IMG/VR virus record: IMGVR_UViG_3300045988_079259
Coordinates: 1-51,381 of that record
Strand: one strand, 5' to 3'
DNA length: 51,381 nt
Origin: a virus
Position numbers and translations under genes: made by a program. The notes beneath the pieces were generated by a model that was not told the DNA's origin, ran no database searches, and worked only from the letters and a program-made list of their open reading frames with translations. Below are positions 31,233 to 48,790 of this stretch, in pieces. How positions within the stretch are numbered: the first letter of the stretch is position 1; the number at the start of each line of letters is the position of its first letter.

Positions 31233-31234
31233 AA

Positions 31235-31928: not shown

Positions 31929-32139
31929 GCTGCACATCAACTGGAAATCGCGCGGCTACACCGACGGCAGAATAGCAGACCTGCTTGAAATAGAACCGAA
32001 AACAATAAGCTATAAACTCAGCGGAATCAACCCCGCCAATAACGGCAGAAAAGCGCATTTCAAGTTGAACGAGATAATGCAGATAATACACTATCTCGGC
32101 TTCAAGCTCTATCTCGTGAGAGAGGATGATGCGAAATGA
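31882..32139 (+). CDS. hypothetical HTH-like protein
   Basis: 85-aa ORF (GRIADLLEIEPKTISYKLSG). Confidence 0.5.
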   Translation: MRKATEIIDERQLVSELHINWKSRGYTDGRIADLLEIEPKTISYKLSGINPANNGRKAHFKLNEIMQIIHYLGFKLYLVREDDAK

Positions 32140-32963: not shown

Positions 32964-33553
32964 TATCAACGCTGAAAATTCTCAAAGTCGCATATCCCGG
33001 ATTTTACTCGAAGATGAGCAAAACGGACGCAGAGGACACCGTATCTGTGTGGTGCGATATGTTTTGCGAAGAGGACGTGAACGTTGTCAAAATCGCTCTG
33101 TACAAGGTCATTGAAGAACACACAGGCTTTCCTCCGACGATAGCGGACATCAAGACGCAGATACGAGAAATGCGCAGAGCGGCGACGGGAGAAAAGACGG
33201 ACGAAGAACTGTGGTCTCAGCTGAAAGCGGCAGTGTCGAACGGCTACTACGGAGCAAAAGAGGAATTCGCGAAACTTCCTCCCGAACTGCAAAGATACCT
33301 CGGAACGCCTAACACTCTCCGCGAACTTTCACAGGTTGACACCGATACGTTTAACACCGTCACTCACGGGCAGTTCCTCAAACAGATAGGCATCATCCGC
33401 GACAGAGTGAGATTTGATAACGAAACGCCGCCCGAAATCAAGGCACTGCTCGGCACAGTAACAAAGCCGATACCCGCAAACAACAGACTTACCGAAAACG
33501 AATTTAACGAGAGCAGAAACAGACTGCTCGACACATTACAAAACAATCCGTAG
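32945..33553 (+). CDS. G39P-like helicase loader
   Basis: 202 aa. The N-terminus VISTLKILKVAYPGFYSKMSKTDAEDTVSVWCDMFCEEDVNVVKIALYKVIEEHTGFPPTIADI resembles the SPP1 G39P loader family pattern. Confidence 0.55.
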   Translation: MDRTDVISTLKILKVAYPGFYSKMSKTDAEDTVSVWCDMFCEEDVNVVKIALYKVIEEHTGFPPTIADIKTQIREMRRAATGEKTDEELWSQLKAAVSNGYYGAKEEFAKLPPELQRYLGTPNTLRELSQVDTDTFNTVTHGQFLKQIGIIRDRVRFDNETPPEIKALLGTVTKPIPANNRLTENEFNESRNRLLDTLQNNP

Positions 33554-33568
33554 AAAGGACACAATACA

Positions 33569-33793
33569 ATGACAGACAACACAATACTCGCAGATTTCGC
33601 ACCATGGAATCCCGCAAGCCGTAAACCGAAAGCATCCGGCAAGTACCTTATCTGGACGAACGACGGAAGCATGATGGTAGCCGATTACTCCGTAAAATAC
33701 GACGGATGGGGAATCCTGCCGGACGGCGGCAGAGCCTACGAAATCAAAGACGTTGAGTTCTGGATGAGCATTCTTCCCCCGACAATCTTCTGA
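33569..33793 (+). CDS. hypothetical protein
   Basis: 74-aa ORF with an AAAGGA RBS. Confidence 0.5.
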   Translation: MTDNTILADFAPWNPASRKPKASGKYLIWTNDGSMMVADYSVKYDGWGILPDGGRAYEIKDVEFWMSILPPTIF

Positions 33794-33810
33794 ACGAAAG
33801 GACAAAGGCA

Positions 33811-34119
33811 ATGAAACAAAGGCTGATACAGAATACACTGATATCGAGCGGCGTGACAATGCTCGGAGTTATAACCTCATGCGGAATGTGGTACTACACC
33901 GTTCCCTCATGCGTCGTGTTCGCCGTAAGCGCATTGACAATGTGTCTGCTCACCATAGCAATAACAGCCGTCAGAGAGCTTTTCAGAGCGTATGAGCGCA
34001 CACTGCCGAGAAAGCGCAGGAGAATCCGCATGAGATACGACAGCCGCGGAATGCACACCGACAGTCAGCGTCTCGGCTACGTATCGGCGGAAACAATCAG
34101 AGAGGTGTGCAGAAGATGA
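33811..34119 (+). CDS. hypothetical membrane protein (2 TM)
   Basis: 102-aa ORF with two hydrophobic helices and an Arg-rich tail. Confidence 0.55.
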   Translation: MKQRLIQNTLISSGVTMLGVITSCGMWYYTVPSCVVFAVSALTMCLLTIAITAVRELFRAYERTLPRKRRRIRMRYDSRGMHTDSQRLGYVSAETIREVCRR

Positions 34120-34139
34120 AAAACGAAAGGAGCAAAACA

Positions 34140-34397
34140 ATGACTGACGCAGAAAGATGCGTAACGTGCGGAGCTGTGATACCCGAAGGGAGACAGGTAT
34201 GCCCGATATGCTATGCGAAATACCACAACGACTACTCTGAAGAGCTGGCGTACCTCTGGAAGGTGCTGAAAAAGACCGAAAGCAGTCTCAAAACAGCCGA
34301 CAAGAGAAACGCGCCGAACGAAGAACGCGCAAACCTCCGCAAAAGGCGCGATATGCTGTACACGATAATCAACATTGTGGAGGACGCGGGAGCATGA
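34140..34397 (+). CDS. small zinc-ribbon protein
   Basis: 85 aa from ATG 34140 (AAAGGAG RBS). Contains CVTCG...CPIC. Confidence 0.55.
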   Translation: MTDAERCVTCGAVIPEGRQVCPICYAKYHNDYSEELAYLWKVLKKTESSLKTADKRNAPNEERANLRKRRDMLYTIINIVEDAGA

Positions 34398-35188
34398 AGT
34401 GTCTGGCAAAGAAAACGCAGTACCAAAAGGCGGAAAGCGCACTCACTGCGGAATACGGAATGTGGCTTCTCGAATACGTTGACGTTGCTTTCGGCGTAAC
34501 GCTTGCCGAGAGCTACGGCTTCCGCGAGAAGCGACTGCAAAGGTTTTACGACGGCAACCGTAACGGACTTTGCGAAATGGTGAACGCCAATATGCCGACA
34601 ACGATGTTTGTTGACAAAGGCAAGGGCAGACGCAAGGGAGACAGCTCCGACCTCATTGACGATGGCGTAGACACGACGGAGTACATGATAAAGAGAGAAC
34701 TCCGAAGCATAGGCTTCTTCGACTGCGATTTTGAAGCACTGTCGCCGGAGAACCGCTACGACAAGAACGCGCACCACACAAAGCTGGATGTCATGTCGCA
34801 CAACGTGAGAACCGCATGGTACGAAGCGAACGCAAGACGCGCTGTAAGGCTCTACGCGGCGTACACGCTGATTTATATGCACGACACCTACAACTACGGC
34901 GCGGAGAGATTGAACCGTCTGTACGCGCTTGTCGCACCTCAGATAAAGTCCTACGTCGAACGCTTCTTAATAGGCAACCGCCGCGTCGACAGAGAGCTGC
35001 ATGAGGAACTGGACGAGATGCACGAGAAGCTTGAGAAATGCGGACTGCACCTTGAAGAGGTTGTGAAGGAAGACGCGGTAGCGGTAAGCCGAAGAGAACC
35101 GCCGAAAGAACCAAAGAACCCGCCGATACACCTTGACATAGGCGAATACGAAAAAATCATGAAAGAAGTTGCCCGAGTGGCGTTATAA
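34394..35188 (+). CDS. hypothetical protein
   Basis: 264-aa ORF, ATGA-coupled. Has an internal duplication (YGFREKRLQRFYDG / YNYGAERLNRLYAL). Confidence 0.6.
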   Translation: MKCLAKKTQYQKAESALTAEYGMWLLEYVDVAFGVTLAESYGFREKRLQRFYDGNRNGLCEMVNANMPTTMFVDKGKGRRKGDSSDLIDDGVDTTEYMIKRELRSIGFFDCDFEALSPENRYDKNAHHTKLDVMSHNVRTAWYEANARRAVRLYAAYTLIYMHDTYNYGAERLNRLYALVAPQIKSYVERFLIGNRRVDRELHEELDEMHEKLEKCGLHLEEVVKEDAVAVSRREPPKEPKNPPIHLDIGEYEKIMKEVARVAL

Positions 35189-35203
35189 GGAGGATAAACA
35201 AAC

Positions 35204-35848
35204 ATGAAAGATTGCGAAAAATGCGAATACTGTGAAGGGTTTGACTATTACGACGGTACGCCGAATTGCACTTGCAAGGGTGGCGCAAGCAGTTGTCCGT
35301 ACAACGACAGCGGAGATATAAGCAAGGACAAATTTAAAATCACGCTCGACATTCCGGATGTTAACGATTATATCAAGCACACCGTAGAAAACACCGTGGA
35401 ACGCGCGATATATAGCATTATCGACAAATATGTGAGAGAAACAGTGCGGACAGAAATAGAGCAAGCAGCTAAAGTGTACGTTGAGAAATCGCTCGAAAAA
35501 GCCGTTGACGATGAAATAAAAGCCTATATGCAGGAAGACATAACCATAGGCGACAGCTGGAGTTCATCCAAGAGAACGCTAAGCAGGAACGACTACCTCA
35601 GCGAATGCACCGCTAAAGCTGTGGAATCAGGACTGAGTTCGAAAAAGATAGCCCAGACCGTCACCGATTACTGCGAAACTACAATAAACAAATTTGCGAG
35701 AGACCTTAAAGAAGAAGTAAATTTCAAAATAAAGGACAAGTTTGACGAAACGACAAGGAAAGCACTGTCGGATAATGTTGTAACAATGCTGATGGCGGGT
35801 GACACATACAAAAAGCTTTCCGACAGCATGGGGAGGATTTTAGAATGA
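35204..35848 (+). CDS. hypothetical protein with a Cys-rich N-terminus
   Basis: 214-aa ORF with an AGGAGG-like RBS. Confidence 0.6.
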   Translation: MKDCEKCEYCEGFDYYDGTPNCTCKGGASSCPYNDSGDISKDKFKITLDIPDVNDYIKHTVENTVERAIYSIIDKYVRETVRTEIEQAAKVYVEKSLEKAVDDEIKAYMQEDITIGDSWSSSKRTLSRNDYLSECTAKAVESGLSSKKIAQTVTDYCETTINKFARDLKEEVNFKIKDKFDETTRKALSDNVVTMLMAGDTYKKLSDSMGRILE

Positions 35849-36255
35849 ACTTCAAACTTAAGGCAGGAGCGTTCGCACCGATAAGAGCGCACAAGCAGGA
35901 CGCGGGAGTAGACCTTCTTTCCCCCGTCACGGTCACGATTTACCCGGGAGACAGCGCGGTAATTGATACGGGCGTTTGTGCGGAGATTCCCTGCGGCTAC
36001 TGCGGGCAGATATGGTCAAAGAGCGGACTGAACGTCAACCACGGCATTCTCTCGACAGGAATGGTGGACAGCGGTTACGGCGGCAGTATCAAGATAAAAC
36101 TCTGCAACCACTCCCACGAGGTGTACACGGTAAATCGCGGAGACAAGATATCACAGCTTGTGGTAACAGCCTGCGACACAAGCGACGTAGTCATAGTAGA
36201 CGAGATAGCAAGCGGAGAGCGCGGAGAAGACGGCTTCGGCAGCACAGGAAGATAA
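35845..36255 (+). CDS. dut: dUTP diphosphatase
   Basis: 136 aa with AGVDL, GMVDSGYGG and RGEDGFGSTG motifs of trimeric dUTPases. Confidence 0.85.
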   Translation: MNFKLKAGAFAPIRAHKQDAGVDLLSPVTVTIYPGDSAVIDTGVCAEIPCGYCGQIWSKSGLNVNHGILSTGMVDSGYGGSIKIKLCNHSHEVYTVNRGDKISQLVVTACDTSDVVIVDEIASGERGEDGFGSTGR

Positions 36256-36488
36256 CTGCAACGGAATAGATAAGCTGCGACACGATTAGCAACGGAAACG
36301 AATTGAGAAGAAACGCACCGCGCCGAAATGGAATCGAATGGACAGGCGGCGAAAGGCACAGCGACGGAAACGTATTGATATGATAGGCATAGAGCAGGAC
36401 CGCAACGGAAAAGCGAAGCACGGACAAGCGCGGAAACGGAAAAGCAAAAATACCGCGCCGGACGGAATCCGGCAGAAAGGATGAAAAT
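36256..36488 (+). repeat. purine-rich noncoding element, copy 2 (paralog of 25313..25547)
   Basis: T-poor and has no ORF with an RBS. Six copies of ACGGAA, and shares 10-11-mers with copy 1. Confidence 0.6.
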
Positions 36489-36772
36489 ATGAAAATCGAC
36501 ACAAATAAGTATTATATCGTAAGAGGAGACCGCTCCGGTGTATTCTTCGGCAGAATCAATTATCAAGATGGCAAGGAGGTACAGATGAACGATGCGCGTT
36601 GCATCTGGTATTGGGATGGCGCGGCGTCAATCATGGAACTTGCAATAAGCGGCACAAAAAAGCCAAACAATTGCAAGTTCACCGTGAGGGTGGAGGAATT
36701 AACAATCACCGATGCGATAGAGATAATACCTTGCTCAGATGAAGCGACGGCTATAATTAAGGCGGTGAAAGA

Positions 36773-36785
<13 letters not shown>
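36489..36785 (+). CDS. hypothetical protein
   Basis: 98-aa ORF with an AAAGGA RBS. Confidence 0.6.
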
Positions 36786-37504
<719 letters not shown>

Positions 37505-37510
37505 ACAGTA

Positions 37511-38110
37511 ATGGCAAAGTTTAAAGTTGGGGATAGAGTCAAGATAGTTCGTAATGATTATCTGAATTGCGAAATCGGAGACACAGGAACGATAATGGCA
37601 TATAACAGCGGCGCAGGTTATGCCGTGGAGTTTGACATCCCACGCCCTTATTATCATGGTTGCCGTGGGTTAACAACGCCCGGCCACGGTCAATGGGCAT
37701 TGGAGGAAAATATCGAACTCATAGAACCAATCAAAGACAAACCAACCCGTGAATTTAAGTTGATTATCACATCATCCGGCGACACAACCACGGCAAAGCT
37801 GATACACGGTGAAAGAACTGTAGTAAAAGAAGCAACCGTGACAAGATACAGCAAAGACGAATACAGCGAGAAAGCCGCCGTTGAAGCTGTTGTGAAGAAG
37901 ATTTTCGGCGAGGACGAGAAAAAGAACGAAGCAAACAAGCCGTACACTGGCAAGGCTGTGTGGATATGCGACAACGAGAGCGTTTATACAAAAGGCAAAA
38001 TATATGAATTTGTTGACGGCAAATTCAAACACGATTTAGGATTTACAGTTGTCGGATACACCCTCGAAAAAATGAAACGGCTCGGCTGCTTTCTCCCGAT
38101 AGTGGAATGA
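37511..38110 (+). CDS. hypothetical protein
   Basis: 199-aa ORF. Confidence 0.6.
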   Translation: MAKFKVGDRVKIVRNDYLNCEIGDTGTIMAYNSGAGYAVEFDIPRPYYHGCRGLTTPGHGQWALEENIELIEPIKDKPTREFKLIITSSGDTTTAKLIHGERTVVKEATVTRYSKDEYSEKAAVEAVVKKIFGEDEKKNEANKPYTGKAVWICDNESVYTKGKIYEFVDGKFKHDLGFTVVGYTLEKMKRLGCFLPIVE

Positions 38111-38199
38111 TGGAGGAAGAATGAAATGTCGATGAGAGATTACGATGACCTCAAAGATATAGAGATTCCACGGGGACAAGAGATGATAATGGATATCAG

Positions 38200-38694
38200 A
38201 TGAGTTACAAACGCTACTGGGAGCAAAACAAGGCTCGCCGACCATTCCCACCATTATATGAAGCCGCAAAAGCATACGGGAACGAGATATATTATCCAAC
38301 ACCCGAATATGTCAAATCAGGCTCATGCAGATGGTGTGGGAATCCGATTACAAACAAGCGCAGGAAATCATTTTGCTGTGATGAATGCCGAGATGAATTT
38401 GAACGAATGACAGTGTGGAATCGTGGCAGAGACGCATATTCTTTGCGGATTCTATACCGCGACAATTTCACTTGTCAGGACTGCGGAGAATTTCACGCTT
38501 TCAAAAACGAATACGGAATCTACATACCGATAGATGACGGAAAACTAAACGTACATCATATAGTGCCTGTATCAGAAGGCGGCGGGGATGAACCGACAAA
38601 CCTTATTACACTGTGTGTTAGTTGCCACTTAAAACGGCATGGACGAAAGAATCATGAGAAAGAATGCGACGAAAGTGATGCTCGAACATATTAA
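38200..38694 (+). CDS. HNH endonuclease
   Basis: 164 aa with CQDCGE...LNVHHIVPVSEGGGDEPTNLITLCVSCHLKRH. Confidence 0.85.
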   Translation: MSYKRYWEQNKARRPFPPLYEAAKAYGNEIYYPTPEYVKSGSCRWCGNPITNKRRKSFCCDECRDEFERMTVWNRGRDAYSLRILYRDNFTCQDCGEFHAFKNEYGIYIPIDDGKLNVHHIVPVSEGGGDEPTNLITLCVSCHLKRHGRKNHEKECDESDARTY

Positions 38695-38789
38695 AAAAGG
38701 TGAAATTATATGACATTAATCGAATTACAGAAAAAGTTGGGTGAGCAAATAGAACTTTTGACGGACGAGTATGTGTACAAGGAGGAAGA

Positions 38790-39044
38790 ATGAAGATATA
38801 TAAAAACCCGTGGGTGAGCCGCCCTCACTATTTTGTGCCGACTGGACCAGCTCGCTCCGCAAAAATGGAATCTGCCAAGTGCAATGGAATAACCGTAACG
38901 CTTTGGAACGGAGAATGGATGCTGGAAAAATCTCAAATGTATGTAAAAAGTCTCGACAAAATGCCAGTTGTCGGAGAGATTAGCAAAGCAGAACTTGAAA
39001 GCACGGTGATTGCAAGCATATTAGGAAGGGCGGAGTTAGAATGA
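38790..39044 (+). CDS. hypothetical protein
   Basis: 84-aa ORF with a GGAGGAAG RBS. Confidence 0.55.
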   Translation: MKIYKNPWVSRPHYFVPTGPARSAKMESAKCNGITVTLWNGEWMLEKSQMYVKSLDKMPVVGEISKAELESTVIASILGRAELE

Positions 39045-39352
39045 CTGAATACGAAAGATTACATGAGCTGCTGTACAGGCTGCGCGAGATAATGCCGGAG
39101 ATAGGCGAAAATCCCGTTGCCGACGAGATGTACAACATGGTGTTTGAGTATGCCGAGAACACAGACGAAGACGTTGCAGAAGTAGTGAGATGCAAGGACT
39201 GTATCCATCACAGACAGCTTGACCGCAAAGACCGATACGAGGACAGCTTCATCGAGGGCTGCCTTTGGTGCATGCTGGGGCGAGGAGACGGCGTTATGCC
39301 TTGGCAATACTGCGACGATGGCAAAAGAAGAGAAAGCGAGGATGAAGAATGA
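39041..39352 (+). CDS. hypothetical protein
   Basis: 103-aa ORF, ATGA-coupled. Confidence 0.55.
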   Translation: MTEYERLHELLYRLREIMPEIGENPVADEMYNMVFEYAENTDEDVAEVVRCKDCIHHRQLDRKDRYEDSFIEGCLWCMLGRGDGVMPWQYCDDGKRRESEDEE

Positions 39353-39425
39353 ACAACGAAGATAATAACGTACACGCTCAATCGGCAGGCAAGATTGACT
39401 GCAAAGAAAGGATAGCACAAAACGA

Positions 39426-39890
39426 ATGCGATGCAAAATAAGCGATTGTTTTAATTGCCCATATCCCGACTGCATTAATGATTCGTTTTATGATTATAAG
39501 CTGTCGGACAAGCAAAAAGCACGTCACAACGAACTGGCACTCGGACGTCTTGAACAGCGTAGAGTAAACGGCATTTGCACCTATTGTGGAAAGAATCCCG
39601 CGGACAAAGGCTATAAAACTTGTGCAGAGTGCAGAAGAAAACTGACGCGGTATGCCCACAGTTATTGCAGGACGAAGAAAAACAGAACCGCACGAGAGAT
39701 TATGGACGGAATAAGCCTATGCAAAATGTGTGGAAAAAGACCGCCTATAGAGGGAAAGAAGCTGTGCGAAAAGTGCTATAAAATCTGTGCGAACAATCTA
39801 CCCGCCGAACGCGGCGGTAAGAAACTGAACAACGACTTTGCCAAAGAAATTGAAAATTATTATTTGAGGGACAGGAATGAAAAGAGATGA
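39426..39890 (+). CDS. Cys-rich (multi zinc-finger-like) protein
   Basis: 154 aa with repeated CxxC pairs (CTYCG...CAEC, CKMCG...CEKC). Confidence 0.55.
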   Translation: MRCKISDCFNCPYPDCINDSFYDYKLSDKQKARHNELALGRLEQRRVNGICTYCGKNPADKGYKTCAECRRKLTRYAHSYCRTKKNRTAREIMDGISLCKMCGKRPPIEGKKLCEKCYKICANNLPAERGGKKLNNDFAKEIENYYLRDRNEKR

Positions 39891-40152
39891 GATTATCACG
39901 CTCTTAAACGACGCGGCAAAGCGGTACAATCAAATGTACAATGAGCTTGCCGAAATGACAGGCACTTACGACACAAAAATGTGGCAGGAGCTGAGAGCCA
40001 TATCTGAAGCGCGGTATATTCTCTCACGCTTGCCGCAGGTCGTGAATTGCCCAGACTGCGGGAGAATGTACGATACCGATTATCTTCACTTCTGCGGAGG
40101 TGGAGAGCGTGTGGTGAATGGAGGTGGTACGCACGAAAACGGTAATGTTTAA
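39877..40152 (+). CDS. hypothetical protein
   Basis: 91-aa ORF containing a CPDCG motif. Confidence 0.5.
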   Translation: MKRDEIITLLNDAAKRYNQMYNELAEMTGTYDTKMWQELRAISEARYILSRLPQVVNCPDCGRMYDTDYLHFCGGGERVVNGGGTHENGNV

Positions 40153-40519
40153 AATCGACTACCCGCCGACCAAAGCCGGAAAGACAGCATGGAACAGACG
40201 CTACGGACTGAACGCATACTACGCGGGCAAGCATTGGGCGGTACGCAAAAAGGACGCGGAGTATTGGCACACAATAACCCGCGCCGCAGTCAAGGAGTGC
40301 ATTAAAAAGCCTGTGATGTTCGATAAACCAGTTGCGTTTACATATTGGTTCAACTCTCAATTAGATTTGTCAAATTGCAGCTCGTTTGTGAAACTCATAG
40401 AAGACGGTACGAAAGACTTGCTGATACACGACGATAGCCGCAAGTATGTGAAACAAATCAATATGCTGTGGCACAACGAAGACTATATTTTAGTAAAGAT
40501 ACAGGAGATAGACGCATGA
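40118..40519 (+). CDS. RusA-like Holliday junction resolvase
   Basis: 133 aa. The pattern N..Y..HW..R...W and LDLSNCSSFVKLIEDGTKDLLIHDDSRKYV is typical of the RusA family. Confidence 0.6.
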   Translation: MEVVRTKTVMFKIDYPPTKAGKTAWNRRYGLNAYYAGKHWAVRKKDAEYWHTITRAAVKECIKKPVMFDKPVAFTYWFNSQLDLSNCSSFVKLIEDGTKDLLIHDDSRKYVKQINMLWHNEDYILVKIQEIDA

Positions 40520-40854
40520 GCAAAGAAAACCGTGAAACAATCCTTAGCGAAGTAAAGAAGATAATCTGCGACGACCGCAACGAGCAGTACGGCGAGCCGG
40601 AAGACAGCTTTGAGAAAATAGCGGATTACTGGACAACGTATCTCAAGCACAATTGCGTTGCACCCGGCGCGGACTGTGATTTAGGAGCGCGAGACGTAGC
40701 TATATTGATGGTGCTGTTCAAGCTCGGTCGAATGGAGACAAGCTTTTTCTGGAGCTACGACAGCTTTATAGACGCTATAGGCTATATGGCTTGCGCAACG
40801 GATATCGAATACCCGAAATTGACAAACTGGGAGAAAACCAATGCAGATAATTAA
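40516..40854 (+). CDS. hypothetical protein (conserved phage family with an NEQYGEPEDSF motif)
   Basis: 112 aa from ATG 40516 (ATGA coupling). Confidence 0.55.
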   Translation: MSKENRETILSEVKKIICDDRNEQYGEPEDSFEKIADYWTTYLKHNCVAPGADCDLGARDVAILMVLFKLGRMETSFFWSYDSFIDAIGYMACATDIEYPKLTNWEKTNADN

Positions 40855-41029
40855 AATAATCGTCGCAATACTGCTGTATTTGTGCGCTATACTTATTTAC
40901 GGCGCAGTTGAAGTTCTAAGGGCAAAAGGCGTGAAGAGCGCAAAAAACGCGAAACCAAGAACACTGTTTGTGATTTACGCTTTTGTTGCGTTGCAAGTCA
41001 TAGCCGCTACATTACTGCTGAGAATGTAG
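40841..41029 (+). CDS. small membrane protein (2 TM)
   Basis: 62-aa hydrophobic ORF upstream of the SPFH gene. Confidence 0.5.
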   Translation: MQIIKIIVAILLYLCAILIYGAVEVLRAKGVKSAKNAKPRTLFVIYAFVALQVIAATLLLRM

Positions 41030-41039
41030 GAGATAAATT

Positions 41040-41159
41040 ATGCCAATAAGAGGAATTATCGTCATAATTATAGTCGCAGTTTCTCTCGGTTTGTTCGAGG
41101 GAGAAAACATAATAAACTTTTTCAAAAACTTAAACGATAAAGGAGATAACGAAAAATGA
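41040..41159 (+). CDS. small membrane protein (1 TM)
   Basis: 39 aa (MPIRGIIVIIIVAVSLGLFEGENIINFFKNLNDKGDNEK). AGGAG RBS; ATGA-coupled to the SPFH gene. Not in the track (below 60 aa). Confidence 0.45.
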   Translation: MPIRGIIVIIIVAVSLGLFEGENIINFFKNLNDKGDNEK

Positions 41160-42202
41160 AACAGATTATAGGTGTAATAGTTACTGTATGCGTAGCAGTT
41201 GCTTGTATAGTCGGCTACGCAGTAACACATGAAACCATCCCCGCCGGATATGTCGGCTACGTCTACGACAGAACGGCAACCGCAGAAGATAACGTAATCC
41301 CCGGCACATCGGTTCTCAATACCGAGCGTACAGGCAGAATCTCAATTAACCCCTTTACACAAGAGGTCATTACATATCCAACAACAATCGTCTCAAAGAA
41401 CTGGACAAACATCGGCGAGGGCGACAATAAGAAAGATATGTCAATGCAGATAGCATCTCAGGAAGGTAAGAATATCGACGCGGATATCTATATAAGCGTT
41501 CGTCCGATAGATATCGAAAAAATTATAAAATCGTTCGGTACAAAGTCGTTTGATTCAATTATCGACAACGACATCTACGGTCTTACAAAAGGTAAGCTGT
41601 CAACCGTAACTCAGAACTATTCCGTTTACGATGTACAGGCAAGCCGAAGCGATATCCAGAATCAGGTTTTTGAAGTCCTTAGTAAGAATCTTGTCGAAAC
41701 CTACGGTGTAGAGCTTGTCAGACTTGAAATCGGCACTCTGATTCTCCCGACAGATATAGCGGAAAAAATTGACAGAAAGACAGAAGCGCAGAACGAAGTC
41801 GAACTTGCAAAGCTTGAAAGAGATAAGCAGGACGAAATCAATCAGCAGATAGTCGACGCGCAGAAAGCTCAGTCCGAAAAGGAACTTCTTCAGCGGCAGA
41901 CAGAAGCGGACGCAAAAGCCTACGAAATCACGAGAGAAGCAGAAGCCAACTTAGCCGCACAGGAAGCAGAACTTAAAATAGCAGCTTCAAAGGTTGAACA
42001 GGCGAAGCTCGAAAAGGAAGCCGAACTCGAAAAACAGAAATCCTTTACAGATGAATACTTCCGCGATAAGGAACTTGACGTTCAGAAAGAAGCAGTAAAG
42101 GCAATTAATGGTTCAGTTAAAACGATTATCACATCAGGTGACGGCGAAGGTTACGGAGCATTGTTCGGAATTAAAGAAGTGTTGAACAACATTGAAGAGT
42201 AA
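41156..42202 (+). CDS. SPFH/band-7 (prohibitin/flotillin-like) domain membrane protein
   Basis: 348 aa. N-terminal TM helix, a PAGYVGYVYDR...SVRP...VELVRLEIGTLILP core, then a long Ala/Glu/Lys coiled-coil. Confidence 0.7.
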   Translation: MKQIIGVIVTVCVAVACIVGYAVTHETIPAGYVGYVYDRTATAEDNVIPGTSVLNTERTGRISINPFTQEVITYPTTIVSKNWTNIGEGDNKKDMSMQIASQEGKNIDADIYISVRPIDIEKIIKSFGTKSFDSIIDNDIYGLTKGKLSTVTQNYSVYDVQASRSDIQNQVFEVLSKNLVETYGVELVRLEIGTLILPTDIAEKIDRKTEAQNEVELAKLERDKQDEINQQIVDAQKAQSEKELLQRQTEADAKAYEITREAEANLAAQEAELKIAASKVEQAKLEKEAELEKQKSFTDEYFRDKELDVQKEAVKAINGSVKTIITSGDGEGYGALFGIKEVLNNIEE

Positions 42203-42230
42203 AGTCGAAATTGAAAGGAAGTGTTGACTT

Positions 42231-42692
42231 ATCGCAAACTTTAACTTTAACCGCGTTATCCTCGGAGGACGTTTGACGGCAGACCCCGAGCTGAAAACCA
42301 CACCGTCCGGAATTTCCGTAACATCATTTACCGTTGCGGTCAACAGACGTTACTCCGGCAAAGACGGAGAGGAAACTAAAGCGGACTTCTTCTGCGTTAC
42401 CGCATGGAGACAGACAGCTGAATTCATCACGCGCTATTTCAGAAAAGCAAGCTCCATCTGCGTAGTCGGAACTCTTCAGACAAGAACATGGACAGACCAG
42501 CAGGGACAGAAGCGTTTTGCTACAGACATTGTCGCTGACGAAGCACATTTTGTTGACGCGAAGTCGGAAATGCCGCAAGCCGCTCCGCAGTCAAGCTACA
42601 TCCCCGACGCATACACCCAACCGAAAACAGCTGCCACCACACCTGTATTCGAGGACATAAACCCCGATTCGGAAGAACTGCCTTTTAATTGA
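42231..42692 (+). CDS. ssb: single-stranded DNA-binding protein (probable non-canonical ATC start)
   Basis: The OB-fold N-terminus NRVILGGRLTADPELKTTPSG lies upstream of the first canonical start (TTG 42273). The frame opens after TGA 42225..42227. AAAGGAAG sits 9 nt before ATC 42231. The acidic tail DSEELPF is present. Confidence 0.7.
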   Translation: MANFNFNRVILGGRLTADPELKTTPSGISVTSFTVAVNRRYSGKDGEETKADFFCVTAWRQTAEFITRYFRKASSICVVGTLQTRTWTDQQGQKRFATDIVADEAHFVDAKSEMPQAAPQSSYIPDAYTQPKTAATTPVFEDINPDSEELPFN

Positions 42693-43108
42693 GGGTTACG
42701 TCTCCCATACAAAAGACGAGAAAAGCAAGGTAAAAACTTATGGGGTATAACGGCAAAGGTATAAAGTGGAACGACGAAATTGTCAAAATGAACTGAAGAA
42801 AGTTATGACGGCGCTCGGGATTTCAAGAATGCCAACATCCAACGAGTGTAACTTAGTATATGGAAGTAAAGCACTGTCTCAAAGAATTACCAAGAGAAAA
42901 GGTGGATGGTGGTGATTAGCTAAAGAAATGAATTTAGATATAAAAGCCAAGCCAAACACTAACAGGGAAAAAAGGCAAAGAATATAGTGATTCACAATAC
43001 GCAAATAAGCATAGGCGAAATCAGTAGTGTTTATCATCAGTATATAGACAAATGGGATTACATCGTTTCCCTTTCCGACTACTGGAAACGTATATAAGCG
43101 AGGTGCAT

Positions 43109-43297
43109 ATGAAAGAACTGCCAACGATAGAACAGATGCAAAAACTATTCCCCGACTATCCGTGCGGACGCGGAAAATGCAAATATCAAGGAAATCAGCT
43201 TTTCAGAGCACGTCGTTGTTCAAATGTTGATTGCCCGGAATTTAAAGCATGGTTCGTAAAACACTGGGCTAAAATTTGTGGAAGAAAAGCCGAATAA
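43109..43297 (+). CDS. small Cys-rich protein
   Basis: 62 aa from ATG 43109 (GAGGTG RBS). Contains CGRGKC...CSNVDCPEF. Confidence 0.5.
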   Translation: MKELPTIEQMQKLFPDYPCGRGKCKYQGNQLFRARRCSNVDCPEFKAWFVKHWAKICGRKAE

Positions 43298-43299
43298 AA

Positions 43300-43340
43300 A
43301 AAGAGAGCAAGGAATCGCTTCCCTGCTCTTTTCTATTTTG
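43300..43340. terminator. bidirectional rho-independent terminator
   Basis: agagcaaggaa-tcgc-ttccctgctcttttctatttt. Near-copy of the 28083 terminator. Confidence 0.7.
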
Positions 43341-43497
43341 CGTGTCTTGCAATGCTTAGTACGGCTTTCTCCGAAAGTCCCGCTGTTCTGTCGGTCGCTG
43401 TGGCGAGAACTGTTACAAGTCGCACAATCAGCTTTAGCCGTTCCTCGGAGTAGCTTTGTAGTATCTCGGCTATCTCGGTTATAATTTGTTCCTTCAT
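43333..43497 (-). CDS. hypothetical small helical protein (54 aa)
   Basis: MKEQIITEIAEILQSYSEERLKLIVRLVTVLATATDRTAGLSEKAVLSIARHAK. RBS context AAAGAAGGGA. Not in the track (below 60 aa). Confidence 0.45.
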   Translation of the reverse strand: MKEQIITEIAEILQSYSEERLKLIVRLVTVLATATDRTAGLSEKAVLSIARHAK

Positions 43498-43579
43498 TTT
43501 GCACTTCCCTTCTTTATTCTGCTGTCGATTATATCACACGAACGCTTGTTTGTAAATAGCTTTTGTGAAGAAAATGTGT

Positions 43580-43696
43580 TTACTTGAGAAGTTTTTTATT
43601 TTTCTCGAGAAGTTTCGCGAAGCGCAAAAGAAGGATTATGCCTTTGTCGTTTAGTTTGCTTACGATATTTGCTAACTCAAATCTGCAATGCTTCAT
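43580..43696 (-). CDS. hypothetical small helical protein (38 aa), paralog-like of 43333..43497
   Basis: MKHCRFELANIVSKLNDKGIILLLRFAKLLEKNKKLLK. Has the same AAAGAAGGGA RBS context. Confidence 0.4.
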   Translation of the reverse strand: MKHCRFELANIVSKLNDKGIILLLRFAKLLEKNKKLLK

Positions 43697-43879
43697 CTGT
43701 CTGTCCCTTCTTTGTTGGAAATATTTTCTAATTCAAGTGTAACATGCTATTCGAGAGAAGGCAATAGCCGAGTTTAATATTCCATATTAAAATCAGATAC
43801 AAAAATATACTGGTTTTACATTCGACAAATTTATGCACTTATCGGCGCACATTCAATGTTGACAAACATTTAACAACGT

Positions 43880-43913
43880 AAAAGAGCACCCCCATCCAGA
43901 AGAGTGCTCTTTT
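43880..43913. terminator. bidirectional rho-independent terminator
   Basis: aaaagagcac-ccccatccagaaga-gtgctctttt (10-bp stem, U-runs in both directions). Confidence 0.7.
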
Positions 43914-44270
43914 ACACAGCAAATTCATAAACAAAGGAGGAACATGACAGAAGTCACGAAAGGAAACGGAGGGAGTTGAACCCTCGCAAGCAGTCTGTTG
44001 ACCGCCAAACGACCGATTCGCCGTTCCCATGTGTGACAGCTTTAAAAGCCGCCACGGGTTGAAACAACACGACCGAAAGGACGAACGACCATGTTTGCCG
44101 CGCTTTGCGGAGTTGAACCGCAGTTGTACACATTACGGTATCGTCTGCCGTTGAACGTATAGCGCGATATCCGAGCAGCCCGTTGGCGGTTCATCACTCC
44201 CGCTTTTTGCTCGGATATTTTAAAAGAAAGGAGTTTCAATACGAAGAACAACCAGAATTCATTGTCCTAT
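43914..44270 (-). ncRNA. candidate structured noncoding RNA with two tRNA-like modules (unclassified)
   Basis: Bounded by a perfect consensus promoter (44277..44305) and the 43880 terminator, with no ORF carrying an RBS. It contains an 11-bp helix ATATCCGAGCA/TGCTCGGATAT and two T-arm-like hairpins sharing GGTTCAACTCC (GAGGG-TTCAACT-CCCTC and TGCGG-TTCAACT-CCGCA). The first T-arm carries a fully paired 7-bp acceptor-like stem, the second a 6-of-7-paired one. Confidence 0.55.
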
Positions 44271-44276
44271 GACAAC

Positions 44277-44305
44277 ATTATAGCACGTTTAAACGCATTT
44301 GTCAA
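44277..44305 (-). promoter_or_regulatory. consensus sigma-A promoter (TTGACA-17-TATAAT) driving the candidate ncRNA
   Basis: Minus strand: TTGACAAATGCGTTTAAACGTGCTATAAT. Confidence 0.8.
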
Positions 44306-44344
44306 CATATTTATCAACGTTTAGTAATATATTGTTTGTCACGT

Positions 44345-44962
44345 TTAATGTTTACTAAATAGCTTTGCAAACCAATTTAACTTACGCTTGTTACCTTGTT
44401 CAACATCGGATTCGTTTGTTGACTCAACGTTATTCTCGTCTGCAACAGTTTTTTTGCCGGCTGAGACGTTCTGTGAGCCGTTCTGTGGCGCATTAACAAA
44501 CTTATCCGATTCACTGACCGCATGGAGCGTTTGTGCCTGCACAGCGGTTTGTAGCGCGTTGTGGGCGAGTTCAGCGAACTTGCTGGCGTAGTCTGCAATC
44601 TGCTTATCACGTTCGTCAAGCATTTCCGTCTTCTGTTTCAGCTCGTCTGCCTGTCTGTCAATTACGTTTCTGAGAGCTTCTACAGTCTCCTGTAGGCTCT
44701 TTATTGTTTCTGCGCTCAAACACTCGTGTCCTTCGTTTTCTTCGCTCTCACAAGCCTGTGGTGCGTCACACGCGGTTTCCGCAACTGCTTCTTGTTTTTT
44801 TGAGTTGCTATATAGTTTCAATGCATCCTCGGAGATTCTTTTTACTCCGTCCTCGCTTGTCACTATATATTCTTCAAGACCGTTCCGCTTAATTCTTTGA
44901 TATACCGATTGACTTGTCACTCCGGCTCTGTCGGCGAATTCGGCTATTGTGAGGTATTTCAT
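44345..44962 (-). CDS. replication-associated HTH/coiled-coil protein downstream of rep
   Basis: 205 aa. MerR/excisionase-like N-terminal HTH (LTIAEFADRAGVTSQSVYQRIKRNGL), a coiled-coil, and a basic hydrophobic C-terminus (KRKLNWFAKLFSKH). ATGA-coupled to rep. Confidence 0.6.
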   Translation of the reverse strand: MKYLTIAEFADRAGVTSQSVYQRIKRNGLEEYIVTSEDGVKRISEDALKLYSNSKKQEAVAETACDAPQACESEENEGHECLSAETIKSLQETVEALRNVIDRQADELKQKTEMLDERDKQIADYASKFAELAHNALQTAVQAQTLHAVSESDKFVNAPQNGSQNVSAGKKTVADENNVESTNESDVEQGNKRKLNWFAKLFSKH

Positions 44963-45651
44963 GGATTGCTCCTTGCTTTTGTGATTGAGAATTTAATATG
45001 AGTTATACTTCTTCCCGTCCGCGTCGGCTCATAGGCTACACGCAAATCACTAACGGCGTTAATTTCGTCAACGGCAGTGTCGATTACGCGCTTGCGAAAA
45101 TCAATAAAATCCGAATAACCGCCTATTTGCATAAGCGTTTTCAAATTTTCAACAGAAACGGTGTACTCGCCTATATTGGCATAGCTTTTAAGTATCTCGT
45201 ACAAACGTATAGTGTGTTTCGATTCCATGTTTAACACGGTTTGAAGCTGATATGCCGTATACGATTCTTTGAGTTCGAGCAAATAAGGCGCTAACCGCTT
45301 GTCAAGCTGAATCCTAACCCGCGATTCATTTTCGTATATTTCCGCGCCCGAAATCCATGCGCATAGCTTTCTTACATTTCCGTCCACTATCCAGAATGAC
45401 TTGTCGCGTATGGATTGCAGCGTTTCACGGAGATTCTTGTAATTCTTGCCGTTTTGAGTAATTCCAAGTGCTTCACACATATCTTGCAGATTGAAATCAT
45501 ACTCATAAAGTTCTTTATCATCTGGTTTTACCTTGCTTATCGTATACAATATGACTTTTTGCTCCTGTGTTGTCATTCCGTATCTTGACTTTTGAATTAG
45601 TTCGTTCTTTTTGACAACCAAATTATTAATTTTTTTATCGCTATTTTCCAT
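44959..45651 (-). CDS. Rep_3-type (RepB-like) theta-replication initiator
   Basis: 230 aa from ATG 45651 (AAGGGAG RBS). The pattern LVVKKNELIQKSRYGMTTQEQKVILYTISKV...ESKHTIRLYEILKSY, with the iteron array directly upstream, is typical of iteron plasmid initiators. Confidence 0.75.
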   Translation of the reverse strand: MENSDKKINNLVVKKNELIQKSRYGMTTQEQKVILYTISKVKPDDKELYEYDFNLQDMCEALGITQNGKNYKNLRETLQSIRDKSFWIVDGNVRKLCAWISGAEIYENESRVRIQLDKRLAPYLLELKESYTAYQLQTVLNMESKHTIRLYEILKSYANIGEYTVSVENLKTLMQIGGYSDFIDFRKRVIDTAVDEINAVSDLRVAYEPTRTGRSITHIKFSITKARSNP

Positions 45652-45752
45652 GGTTACTCCCTTCATGTTGAAATCTCTGTGCAAAACTATGTTGAAAACA
45701 TTGTTGATAACTGCAAAAGAACAATTTTCCCGTGTGTTTTCTCGGTTTTACA

Positions 45753-45885
45753 GTTACCAAATGTCCTGTTTATCGTTACCAAATGTCCTGTTTATCGTTA
45801 CCAAGTGTCCTGTTTTACAGTTACCAAATGTCCTGCTATCCGTTACCAAATGTCCTGTTTATCGTTACCAAGTGTCCTGTTTAAC
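45753..45885. repeat. six direct 22-bp iterons (GTTACCAAATGTCCTGTTTATC), followed by an AT-rich tract: plasmid-type origin
   Basis: Units start at 45753, 45775, 45797, 45820, 45842 and 45864. The AT-rich stretch 45886..45960 is adjacent. Confidence 0.9.
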
Positions 45886-46229
45886 ATTTCCCTACTTTAA
45901 TTATATAAAAATAGTAAAATAATAAGTATCTCTTATAAAAGTAATAAGTATGTTGTTTCACGAACTAAAGCGCATAAATTTTGCCTGTTGAAAACTCAAA
46001 AGCGAATACACGGTTAGTAAGCAGAAAGAGAAAATTTTTACCATATTGTAATTTTAAGCTATCTGCCATGCCTTGTCAAGACGTTATCTAAATATTGACA
46101 AACGTCTAAATCAACATTTTTCAACGCATTGGTAAACAGATTTACAAACATATTGACAGGGAAGTGTATTTTAGGCAATTGCCGAAAATGATTTGATGAA
46201 CAATGAAGTCAATCGCGTTCCGCAACCAA

Positions 46230-46263
46230 CTGTAAAGAATGGGCGATTCTTTACAGTTTTTTT
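46230..46263 (+). terminator. rho-independent terminator (plus strand) with no obvious upstream gene
   Basis: ctgtaaagaat-gggcg-attctttacag followed by ttttttt. Confidence 0.6.
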
Positions 46264-46351
46264 GCTATTCTTAAATTCTATTAAAGCACCACTTATAAAG
46301 ACAAGCGTGTTTATTGCTCATGTCTTTAACGATTAAGTCAACTTGCAGAAG

Positions 46352-46391
46352 AATAAACAATAAAAGAGGGTAGTTTTACAACTATCCTCTT
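46352..46391 (-). terminator. rho-independent terminator ending the 49570-to-46422 operon
   Basis: Minus strand: AAGAGGATAGTT-GTAA-AACTACCCTCTT, then TTATTGTTTATT. Confidence 0.7.
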
Positions 46392-46421
46392 TAAACTTTA
46401 CTCATGTTTACACAACATTTG

Positions 46422-47030
46422 TCAACGTTTCTCAACTATGCATTCATAGTATTTTGCGAGTTTATCTTTTCCTGCGTCCTCATCGTCAAGGAAAGCGTGA
46501 GCCATTGCCGCATAGAAGTCAACAGAGTTGAGATTAAACTCCTTGCCTATTTTGTAGTAATCGGAGTACATCATGTTAATTGCAGCGTAAAATTCGGCGG
46601 GGTCGCAGTCATAGCCGTGCTGCCGTCTCACCTGCTCCGTTTGTTCAAAATTCCAATGTCTCCCGGTTGAGCCGTCGGCGTTCTTCATTTTTTCCGTCCA
46701 CTCGTCCGCGTCCTCTCGGGTAAACTTGTCGTGCTTTTTCCCGCGTCTGCCGTAGCTCTCGCGCTCACGTCCGTCATAATCGCGGCGGTCTCTCATGTCG
46801 TACTCGCCGTAGTAGTCGCGCTTGCCGTAGCCGTCGTACTCATCATAATCAGGCTGACGGCGGCGGTCATACTCGGGGTATCTTTCCTCGCGTCGGTCGT
46901 ATCTGTCATAATCGTGTTGTCTGCGGTCACGCTCATAGTCGCGCTCGTGTCTGTCGTAGCCGCCGTATTCACCGCGCTTGTCCTTGCTACTCGACATCAT
47001 GAGCAGCCAGTTTGGATTCATCCTCTTCAT
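46422..47030 (-). CDS. protein with an Arg/Asp/Tyr/Glu-rich low-complexity N-terminal half and a globular C-terminal domain
   Basis: 202 aa (GEYGGYDRHERDYERDRRQHDYDRYDRREERYPEYDRRRQPDYDEYDGYGKRDYYGEYDMRDRRDYDGRERESYGRRGKK...). Confidence 0.65.
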   Translation of the reverse strand: MKRMNPNWLLMMSSSKDKRGEYGGYDRHERDYERDRRQHDYDRYDRREERYPEYDRRRQPDYDEYDGYGKRDYYGEYDMRDRRDYDGRERESYGRRGKKHDKFTREDADEWTEKMKNADGSTGRHWNFEQTEQVRRQHGYDCDPAEFYAAINMMYSDYYKIGKEFNLNSVDFYAAMAHAFLDDEDAGKDKLAKYYECIVEKR

Positions 47031-47437
47031 ACGGTTTCACCTCCCGTTGTGGTGGTGGTTGGTGCTGTGCCGTTGATTGAGCGCAGGTCGTTGTTAGGCG
47101 CACATGCCGGTCTGCCGAGCAGTCTAAAGCTGCCGCCCGTCGGTGTAGTGATTACAACCGCGCTGTATCTCGTCCGCGCCCTTATCGAGCAAGCGGTCAG
47201 CTGAGCGCAACAACGGTTAGTCAGCGGGTATAGCGTAGTGCCATCTCCGATTGTGACGTACACGGGAGCGGTGATTGTCGTCGCCGTCGGAATTGCCTGA
47301 GCGACTACGACACAATATTTTTCCCCCGCGTTATATGCGCCCGCAGGGAGATTGATTACCAGGTTGCCGCCGGTAAAGGACACCGACTGCGATAGGATAA
47401 AGCGCGGACAAAGTCTGCATACATTAGTACAAGCCAT
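47027..47437 (-). CDS. Cys-rich beta-type small protein
   Basis: 136 aa from ATG 47437 (GGAGG RBS). MACTNVCRLCPRF...RCCAQLTACS...; Thr-rich C-terminus. Confidence 0.65.
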   Translation of the reverse strand: MACTNVCRLCPRFILSQSVSFTGGNLVINLPAGAYNAGEKYCVVVAQAIPTATTITAPVYVTIGDGTTLYPLTNRCCAQLTACSIRARTRYSAVVITTPTGGSFRLLGRPACAPNNDLRSINGTAPTTTTTGGETV

Positions 47438-47520
47438 TTTTTTATACCTCCAAAAAATCAAAAGGGAAGCGGTATGCCGCTCCCCCGAAGTTGGTCACGG
47501 CTTAAAGCCGGAGTTGTGAA

Positions 47521-48790
47521 TCAATAGTTGCCGCAGCCGGAACAGCCGGAATTGCAGCCATAGTTGCCGTACTGCCAAGGCGCGGGAACGTTGAATGCGG
47601 GTACGGGCGCCTTACAGCCGAGCTGACTTACAAGATACTGATTCTGCGCCTGCTGTGATGCGGCAAGCTCAAGTCCAAATATCCTCTGTGTCTGCGCTGC
47701 AATCTGTGCGTCCTTCGCCGCTATCTCCTGCGCCGTCAGTCTGTCGGATATGCCACGGAATCCGCTATTCATCGCGTCGATGATATCGCGGGTGTTGTTA
47801 GCGGCGTTGGTGTTAATCGCGCAAGTGTCGGTTGCCATGCGGTAGCCAACATCGGCAAATCCGCGCTCCATTGCTCTGCCGTTGTCGCAGCAGCACTGCT
47901 GGAGCTGTGTCGCAAGAGCCGCCTGTCCGCGCTCAACACCGTTAAATCCCTGCATCATTGCGACGTTATTTGCGTTAAATCCCTGCTGTGTCTGATAGCC
48001 GAGGTTGCAAACCGCATTGTCGACGCCGTGGAATCCGTTGAGGATGGATGTGTTAAGCCCGTAAAATCCGTCGCAAAGTCCCTCTTGTACGCCGCGGACG
48101 GAATTCTCAAGCCCGTTGAATCCAAACTCGCTCTGGAGGTCTGCGCGTGTTAATCCGCCCTGAGTGCCTGCCGCCATTACGTAGGGGAGTGCGCCCATGC
48201 CCGAGGAATCGCCGTTGTTTCCGCCGAAGCCGTTACGACCCCAGCCGAATATGATAGCGAGGATGATTACCGCCAATTTGTTCACGTCAAAGCGCAACCC
48301 CTGACGCAGTCTTGCCGTTATAGGTAGACTTCTGACGTTTTCACGCCAGTGCAGACTATATCTTCACCTGTATTTCTACAGGGCAACATTTTTCTTCCGT
48401 CATTAGCTTACGGTTTTACTCTCCGTCAAGGAGATAGTCGTTGAGGGTCTTCCATGCCTTAAAAAGGTTTAGGACTGTCCCTGCTAAACACCCATTGTAG
48501 AAGCACTTAGGACTGACACCGTGCCAGTTTTTTTATTTCGCCATATGCCATCTCACTGTTTTTTCTGCTTTCGCGCCGTTCAGTTTGCCGTTTCCGACTG
48601 CTGTTTAGGTAGTGAGCTTTAGGGATTAAAAGCATTTAACGTTGAGTTTACACCGATTACTCGATATAAAGGGTAGCCGTAGTTATAATCCTACTTTTGC
48701 CCAAAGTCCTTCATTTCCGAAGAAGCCGCCGTCACGGTTGTTGCTGTCTCCCTGACCCGCAAGGAAACCTGTCAAAAGTTCGTTGCCCAT
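47521..48790 (-). CDS. Gly/Asn-rich membrane protein gene split by a group I intron (exon 1 48693..48790, exon 2 47521..48292; 289 aa after splicing)
   Basis: Exon 1 (AGGAG RBS) encodes MGNELLTGFLAGQGDSNNRDGGFFGNEGLWAKV. It joins in frame to FDVNKLAVIILAIIFGWGRNGFGGNNG... under the P1/P10 model. The C-terminus is GCNSGCSGCGNY. Confidence 0.65.
48293..48692 (-). ncRNA. group I self-splicing intron (subgroup IA-like, no internal ORF)
   Basis: Core elements: CAACGACTATCTCC (48433..48441 region) and GAAGATATAGTCTGC (48354..48362 region) match the P7 strands of T4 td-type introns, and there is a CCTGTA-GAAA-TACAGG hairpin. P1 pairs AAAAGU with GCUUUU through a U.G pair. P10 pairs UUUGACG with CGUUAAA. 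The terminal nucleotide is G. Confidence 0.8.

Follow-up and report, generated by a model that had tools for sequence, protein, structure and literature searches.

A stand-alone group IA2 intron of IStron lineage, predicted to be spliced from a conserved membrane-protein gene of a phage

Group B IStrons, in which a group I intron is fused to an insertion sequence (IS) element of the IS607 type, insert after AGGG, TGGG or GAGG and splice after G, as determined by reverse transcription PCR for BcISt1, in which the next U is intronic (Tourasse et al. 2014, PMC4227781). In the case of CboIStron, splicing is scarless, and TGGG serves both as the target-adjacent motif of CboTnpB and as the donor joint (Zedaveinyte et al. 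2023, bioRxiv 10.1101/2023.11.20.567912). Relatives without coding capacity have also been described, namely copies of BcISt1 (482 nucleotides [nt]) without an open reading frame (ORF) in emetic Bacillus cereus and a stand-alone IA2 intron of Turicibacter related to CbISt1 and CbISt4 (PMC4227781). By contrast, in phage introns of the T4 (td, nrdB, sunY) and Twort/Herelleviridae type, the last exon base is a U that forms a U.G pair; these introns are mostly located in genes for DNA metabolism or structural proteins, and a homing endonuclease is often encoded within them. Here, we describe a 427-nt element on the minus strand (48699..48273) of a viral DNA of 51,381 nt (IMG/VR record IMGVR_UViG_3300045988_079259, positions 1 to 51,381; hereafter, the window). 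With a probability of roughly 0.85, we consider it to be a genuine stand-alone, ORF-less group IA2 intron which belongs to the ribozyme lineage of the IS607-type group B IStrons and is predicted to splice.

The element lies between 2 ORFs of the minus strand, the first of 35 codons and preceded by a good ribosome-binding site (48683..48790) and the second of 258 codons (47521..48297), with about 385 nt between them. The original prediction, made from the sequence alone, that these ORFs are pieces of 1 gene split by an ORF-less group I intron and joining in frame is borne out by the analyses below. The Rfam group I intron model RF00028 matches positions 48679..48332 over its full length (model positions 1-253; 32.6 bits, reported by E-value), with E-values of 2.1e-6 (801 nt searched) and 1.4e-4 (entire 51-kb window). 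Comparison with phage genomes by blastn showed that 48698..48293 is 68% identical to a locus of Clostridium phage c-st (E 1e-34) and that the ribozyme core also matches intron regions of Enterococcus and Staphylococcus Herelleviridae (approximately 72% similar). Based on the Rfam E-values, the E-value of the c-st match and the covariation described below, which was reached by none of 500 shuffles, the group I signal is far above chance. The core is complete, with the P3-P7 pseudoknot, the P4-P6 domain, P8, and the J8/7 and P7 sequences of the guanosine site. GAAGAUAUAGUC and CAACGACUA agree with the RF00028 consensus (J6/7-P7 and J8/7-P7'), and the P7 strands, the CCTGTA-GAAA-TACAGG hairpin (P8) and the 2 P9 hairpins that had been picked out beforehand align with the corresponding parts of RF00028 and of the covarying family alignment. 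A search for ORFs within the intron revealed no credible candidate, the sole one being 42 codons long (48507..48635) and lying over P4-P5.

The fold was assessed on an alignment of 20 sequences, comprising the window intron, 3 phage relatives and 16 IStron introns. Pairs were counted on the RNAalifold consensus, to which the P7 pseudoknot was added, with the 3' partners slid by 1-3 columns and 500 column shuffles as controls. RNAalifold recovers P2, P3, P4, P5 with a branched extension, P6/6a/6b, P7.1, P7.2, P8, P9, P9.1 and P9.2, with 99.0% of the alignment cells being standard pairs. Double-sided changes affect 48 of the 98 pairs, compared to 5-11 in the slid controls, and 0/500 shuffles reached the observed value. 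Helices P3, P5, P6 and P8 covary, P4 and P7 are invariant, and every column invariant in the family is retained in the window intron.

P1 (48671..48702) is formed by the exon-terminal GGG (48702..48700) and the guide CCC (48673..48671), which is located directly 5' of P2. It consists of 3 bp only and encloses a hairpin, GUAG (48694..91)/CUAC (48683..80), the loop of which holds an in-frame stop codon, TAA (48685..83). The minimum-free-energy fold of the 5' region places the same P1, stacked on P2, in the window intron and in L008, a representative of a second lineage of the intron (z-scores of -3.4 and -3.9), and the GGG/RCCC arrangement adjoining P2 is common to all IStron relatives. P2 (48647..48670) pairs UUUAUAUCG with CGGUGUAAA around the loop AGUAAU, with double changes in 6/10 pairs and 99.5% of the cells paired, whereas the 5' strand of P3 (CAACGUU, 48638..48644) pairs with AAUGUUG (48390..48384) in 100% of the cells, 4/7 pairs being compensatory. 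The following region (48482..48634), supported by both the covarying and the Rfam alignments, includes P4 (UGCU 48634..31/AGCA 48485..82), J4/5, and P5 (CCC 48624..22/GGG 48493..91) with its branched extension; P6/P6a/P6b (48445..48481) is defined by the covarying alignment. In P7, the guanosine-binding helix which forms the pseudoknot with P3, GACUA (48435..48439) pairs with UAGUC (48358..48354), invariantly in 20/20 sequences. P7.1 (UCUCC/GGAGA, 48434-20) and P7.2 (CCGU/ACGG, 48413-397), together spanning 48397..48434, are situated between P7 and the 3' strand of P3, with a U-A pair of P7.2 compensated to C-G in L008. The presence of these 2 peripheral helices, along with the P9.1/P9.2 extensions, assigns the intron to subgroup IA (IA2), in agreement with the T4 td-like class originally proposed. 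P8 (CCUGUA-GAAA-UACAGG, 48367..48382) is supported by the covarying and Rfam alignments, and P9 (48349..48332) and P9.1 (48330..48308), which together occupy 48308..48349, by the covarying alignment. The last helix, P9.2 (48284..48307), pairs GCGUCAGGG with CUUUGACGU (48292..48284) around the conserved loop GUUGCG (48298..48293). Double-sided changes in 8/9 of its pairs are directly visible when the window intron is compared with L008, another relative (L015) and c-st. An 11-nt tail, GAACAAAUUGG (48273..48283), leads from P9.2 to the 3' splice site.

The boundaries of the intron were determined by comparison with intron-less alleles. In 3 of these (L010, L011, and L039, the protein of the latter being 96% identical to the window product), the empty site reads CTTTGGG|CGGTAATC, that is, GGACTTTGGGCGGTAATCATC / ...GGACTTTGGGCGGTAATC..., and this sequence is reproduced exactly when exon 1, ending at G48700, is joined to exon 2, starting at C48272. 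The same comparison places the terminal G of the intron at G48273. Two cuts, 48699..48273 and 48700..48274, fit the empty site and a terminal G, and both would yield the identical mRNA with G as the last exon base. We favor the former, in which the intron begins with CAAAAGUAGG and ends with ...GAACAAAUUGG, because BcISt1 splices after G, the next U being intronic. The last exon base is thus G48700 rather than the U of a U.G wobble at the cleavage site, and therefore fits the published exception of the group B IStrons. Alternative 5' sites ending in U (U48703, 48704, 48693, 48688, and 48685) were enumerated in all in-frame combinations with a G downstream of P9.2; none restores the intron-less sequence, and no guide sequence was found between these sites and P2. 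A P1 composed of ACUUU/AAAGU (48707-03/48697-93) would contain U-A pairs exclusively and is not conserved in c-st.

The intron-less homologs, proposed at the outset as a check on the exon junction, do exist but move that junction away from where the original prediction had put it. The boundaries of 48692..48293 are off by 7 nt at the 5' site and by 20 nt at the 3' site. Furthermore, in the Rfam alignment and the covarying fold, GCUUUU (48633..48628), taken as the guide strand of P1 opposite AAAAGU, corresponds to the 5' strand of P4 plus J4/5, and CGUUAAA, taken as the P10 guide, to the 5' strand of P3 plus J3/4. Neither is suited to act as a guide, since the guide sequence must lie 5' of P2. 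G48293, the supposed 3' splice site, occupies the final position in the GUUGCG loop of P9.2. The 3' strand of this helix, which had been read as F-D-V codons, covaries with its partner, and this includes c-st, in which the element is flanked by an unrelated gene. Consequently, the junction ...WAKV|FDVNKLAVII... contains 9 extra residues (KVFDVNKLA), which are present in no intron-less homolog. An alternative P1, GAUUAU/GUAAUC, fares no better: GUAAUC belongs to the loop and 3' strand of P2, and GAUUAU is replaced by AAUUCU in L008 without compensation.

Exon 1 (48700..48790, minus strand) starts with ATG at 48790, ends with GGA CTT TGG G (G48700) and encodes MGNELLTGFLAGQGDSNNRDGGFFGNEGLW plus the first base of an Ala codon, as supported by the ORF list and by the alignment to the 3 intron-less alleles. 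Exon 2 (47521..48272, minus strand) starts with CG GTA ATC ATC, which completes the Ala codon and continues as VIILAIIFGWG..., and extends to the stop codon. The product computed from the joined exons has 280 amino acids (aa), and a protein search with it recovered thousands of relatives, including an intron-less homolog (P0001) which is also 280 aa long and 89% identical, with 100% query coverage. Dozens of full-length homologs read GLWAVIIL, with ...FFGNEGLW-AVIILAIIFGWG... found in P0001 and many more. The interrupted gene is a conserved phage membrane-protein gene; its 280-aa product matched no family in a Pfam search and, among PHROGs, only phrog_16490, of unknown function. The intron is inserted between the codons for ...GLW|AVIIL..., just before the sole hydrophobic segment of the protein, which is also the most conserved. 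Translation of the unspliced transcript would end after 35 residues, at the TAA codon within P1. Public gene calls for intron-containing alleles (P0002-P0004, P0008 and others) cover exon 2 alone, with assorted start codons (TTG/ATG/GTG), which vary by allele and map to intron sequence, namely to hairpin P9.2 and the 3' tail. Mismatches among the intron-containing alleles occur at every third base of exon 1, indicating that this exon is translated and still under coding selection. The wobble base of the Ala codon adjoining the 3' junction is G, A or T in the intron-containing alleles, as expected for a coding base.

With respect to its origin, the c-st locus matching the intron is directly followed by a pair of IS607 genes annotated as 'IS transposase OrfA/OrfB', and this element is known as IStron CbISt3, of IS607-type group B and subgroup IA2 (Tourasse et al. 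2014, PMC4227781). Searching IMG/VR for the P7-P7.1 motif yielded 27 loci, most of which have (A)TGGG|TAACAAAACTGTTAC... at the 5' flank and, past the last ribozyme hairpin, approximately 1.5-2.1 kb of IS sequence ending in ...TTTATCGTARCGG; those loci are IStrons. The window intron is 71-79% identical to the 16 IStron introns of the alignment over approximately 400 aligned positions. Like the group B IStrons (CbISt3, CbISt1/2/4, BcISt1, CboIStron), it has a homologous IA2 ribozyme with helices P2-P9.2, P7.1/P7.2 and the GUUGCG loop, a guide RCCC abutting P2, insertion at TGGG, G as both the last exon and the last intron base, and a scarless junction. Unlike them, it lacks tnpA, tnpB, the guide RNA, the AU-rich inverted-repeat stem and the left-end terminal hairpin; in full IStrons, an AU-rich inverted-repeat stem with tnpA/tnpB, a guide RNA and the ...CGUARCGG end are inserted after a conserved GUGAAYAA. 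The tblastn searches with TnpA and TnpB of c-st produced no match in the 51-kb window (best E 0.6), the inverted repeat and the left-end and right-end motifs of IStrons are absent from both the element and the whole window, and where IStrons carry their IS component, past the core of the ribozyme and before the 3' splice site, the window intron has only the 11 nt that follow P9.2. The terminal ~18 nt common to the left ends of IStrons (TAACAAAACTGTTACAAT; GGG|TAACAAAACTGTTAC...) are missing as well, the 3' end is AAAUUGG versus CGG and the first base C versus U. In addition, the window intron is confined to a single site in 1 phage gene family, in phages related to gut genomes of Oscillospiraceae/Eubacteriales. 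When the 3' tail was considered as a remnant of an IStron right end, no similarity was found past the terminal GG. By definition, the window intron is thus not an IStron but a stand-alone intron of the IStron lineage.

An IStron-lineage ribozyme without coding capacity is what the intron has in common with the ORF-less BcISt1 copies and the Turicibacter intron. The latter, by its description rather than its sequence, further resembles it in the GG-ending site, the lack of an inverted-repeat stem and a 3' end unlike the IStron termini, whereas the ORF-less BcISt1 copies retain the inverted-repeat stem-loop. The present intron differs from these elements in its host, a phage gene, and in sequence lineage. 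The P7.1/P7.2 architecture and an in-frame stop codon soon after the 5' site are shared with the phage IA2 introns of T4 (td, nrdB, sunY) and Twort/Herelleviridae. The presence of an ORF-less intron in an accessory gene, which had appeared unusual for a phage, is accounted for by the lineage, as the ribozyme is that of IS607-type IStrons, inserted after TGGG wherever it occurs, and not that of a homing-endonuclease intron of DNA-metabolism genes (Tourasse et al. 2014, PMC4227781). In a neighbor-joining tree with midpoint rooting, the root of which is uncertain, the phage introns form a clade nested among the IStron introns, which mildly favors a derived origin through loss of the IS part.

Another apparent IS-less relative of the IStron ribozymes is locus L021 (IMGVR_UViG_3300021426_002640, from approximately 250 nt before to 200 nt after the P7 motif at 1615-1644). 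It has a very short exon 1, ATGTTTACTCCACTACAAATGGG, followed by TAAC..., and a 3' end ...AACAAAATG|T with an in-frame ORF after it, the junction being ambiguous without an intron-less homolog. L013 (GGGT|GGTACCGTGCCCC) is similar in appearance.

According to the model we propose, the transcript would fold as P1-P9.2, with the exon-terminal GGG paired to the guide CCC that abuts P2. Exogenous guanosine would attack after G48700, that is, after TGGG, with G in place of the usual U, G48273 would then dock, and ligation of the exons would leave no scar, generating CUUUGGG-CGGUAAUC, as in the intron-less alleles. The ligated complementary DNA (cDNA) is expected to read ...GGACTTTGGG|CGGTAATCATC... 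across the junction. Several observations weigh against a functional intron of this kind. Self-splicing of the 427-nt element is a prediction from DNA sequence. The Rfam search, suggested together with the original prediction, did yield a full-length match, but its 32.6 bits fall short of the curated gathering threshold of RF00028 (50 bits), at which there is no match in the window. The first intron base is C, compared to U in most relatives and A in c-st, and the opposing guide base is A, so that no U-G or U-A pair adjoins the cleavage site. The 3' end is UUGG and not the CGG reported for group B IStrons, and the 18-nt 3'-terminal determinant that CboIStron requires has no counterpart in the window intron. 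No convincing conserved P10 was found; GAUUAU (48690..85)/exon-2 GUAAUC keeps 4/6 pairs in the L008 lineage. Finally, the minimum-free-energy z-score of the whole intron is -1.76, an uninformative value, as expected for a pseudoknotted ribozyme.

The distribution of the intron bears on its mobility. Compared to the window, L004, L007 and L037 match at 427/427 intron positions and L018 at 426/427, whereas the exons of these alleles have diverged, with identities of 80-85% for exon 1 and 91-93% for exon 2. Mismatches in exon 1 occur at every third base from position -20 upstream, with none between -19 and -1, and the first difference in exon 2 is at +2. The second lineage, L008/L009, is 91% identical and diverges by compensatory changes. 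Two collection scans (IMG/VR and metagenomes) for the same intron at other sites recovered only this gene and this site, all 13 known copies being located there. The identity of the intron in alleles with 8-20% exon divergence implies that it has spread recently, laterally and site-specifically, with almost no co-conversion and without an encoded protein. Candidate routes are reverse splicing, IS607 proteins acting in trans, and short-tract recombination; spread between diverged alleles must depend on a route that is supplied in trans or is RNA-based. It is conceivable, if rather speculative, that this is a protein-free but still mobile intron, installed with base precision at the same TGGG by reverse splicing guided by 3 nt or by TnpA/TnpB of a host IStron, or, alternatively, that it represents the free-living ancestor type of the IS607 IStrons; in either case, it might provide a natural example of cleavage after G with C as the first intron base.

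Two further features of exon 1 were noted. In all alleles examined, including the intron-less ones, the FFGNEG codons (UUCUUCGGAAAUGAAGGA, 48707-48724, minus strand) fold into a hairpin of 7 bp immediately 5' of P1; this hairpin, which adjoins the 19-nt exon tract identical among intron-containing alleles, probably arises incidentally from the codons (UUY UUY ... GAR GGN). In 2 metagenomic intron-containing alleles, L064 and L066, exon 1 has a run of 6 T instead of the 7 found elsewhere (GGCGGTTTTTTGGAAATG), which would shift the frame and reflects either an assembly error or a decaying allele.

Of the other explanations, the one that survives best, although we regard it as unlikely, concerns the movement of the element and is compatible with its nature as an IStron-lineage intron. 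The element could be a non-autonomous miniature IStron, a DNA transposon remnant whose movement as DNA relies on an IS607 serine transposase, or on TnpB-triggered repair, provided in trans by a host IStron, with splicing only making it harmless. Insertion at TGGG that leaves GG at either junction (GGG|C ... UUGG|C), in the manner of IS607 elements using serine recombinases, the identity of all 427 nt amid diverged exons, which stops within 1 nt of the 3' end, and the nesting among IStron introns in the midpoint-rooted tree are all in line with this explanation. Nevertheless, the window encodes neither tnpA nor tnpB, and the left-end ~18 nt, the AU-rich inverted repeat and the ...CGTARCGG right end of the relatives are lacking. 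Moreover, the location of 13/13 known copies at 1 site in 1 gene is homing-like rather than transposon-like, and a 19-nt identical tract in the 5' exon would not be expected from precise transposition.

Less probable still is that the insertion is a relic which no longer splices, the gene being either a pseudogene or 2 separate ORFs, of 35 and approximately 255 aa, expressed independently. The derivation of splicing from DNA sequence, the sub-threshold Rfam score, the non-canonical C after the cleavage site, the missing IStron 3' determinant and the annotation of exon 2 alone by gene callers would all be compatible with decay. However, all invariant positions of the core are kept, and substitutions among the alleles are compensatory or located in loops. 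The reading frame is maintained in both exons and their protein sequence is conserved, with differences restricted to third positions, and at least 10 distinct contigs carry the intron, invariably with intact exons. The exon-2 starts called by the annotation programs differ between alleles and lie inside intron structures.

The boundaries originally predicted (intron 48692..48293 with P1 AAAAGU/GCUUUU ending in U.G, P10 CUUUGACG/CGUUAAA, the product ...GLWAKV|FDVNKLAVIIL... and the implied cDNA junction AAAAGT|CTTTGACG) have in their favor that the 5' site ends in U, as is canonical, that the intron terminates in G and that the exons join in frame, and the c-st match happens to end at the same 3' position, but they are already contradicted and practically untenable: in addition to the assignment of their guides to core helices, the position of G48293 in the P9.2 loop and the 9 residues without counterpart, both pairings lose their partners in L008 without compensation (GCUUUG; UCCCGGC versus CGUUUAA), and CUUUGACG, as the 3' strand of P9.2, covaries with GCGUCAGGG, 'FD' becoming 'PG' through 4/6 base changes while the hairpin is kept.

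The window represents a siphovirus-like phage genome, encoding a large terminase, a portal, a major head protein and a tape measure protein, and relatives of the split gene lie in gut genomes of Eubacteriales/Oscillospiraceae. Downstream of the split gene, the second ORF (46422-47030, minus strand) encodes a DUF7841 domain (E 1.3e-27) after an N-terminal half of low complexity, extremely rich in R/D/E/Y, and the order of the split gene, an ORF of approximately 133-157 aa and the DUF7841 gene is constant in all related loci. Elsewhere in the genome, a type-P5 twister ribozyme (22925-22982, plus strand; 40.8 bits, cut-off 37.6) and a pistol ribozyme (23648-23712, plus strand; 62.8 bits, cut-off 34.5) are located approximately 670 nt apart upstream of ORF 23788-24534, so that 2 self-cleaving ribozymes share the phage with the intron. 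The gap that separates the large terminase ORF (18442-20112) from the portal ORF, which starts at 18219, contains a gut-2 RNA motif (18220-18267, minus strand; 48.9 bits, cut-off 39.8) whose end is 1 nt from the portal start.

If the element is indeed a spliced intron, the gene should be annotated as encoding a single 280-aa protein rather than separate products of 35 and 258 aa, and the public calls for intron-containing alleles would be truncated artefacts. The IStron-lineage ribozyme, with its rule of splicing after G, would then also exist in stand-alone form in phages of the gut Oscillospiraceae/Eubacteriales type, beyond the Clostridium, Bacillus and Selenomonas hosts of the 2014 survey. 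With 427 nt, no IS part and C instead of U, the intron would offer a natural minimal version for studying the choice of the 5' splice site in group B and the 3' determinants that are needed, and its identity among alleles with diverged exons raises the testable question of how an ORF-less intron moves.

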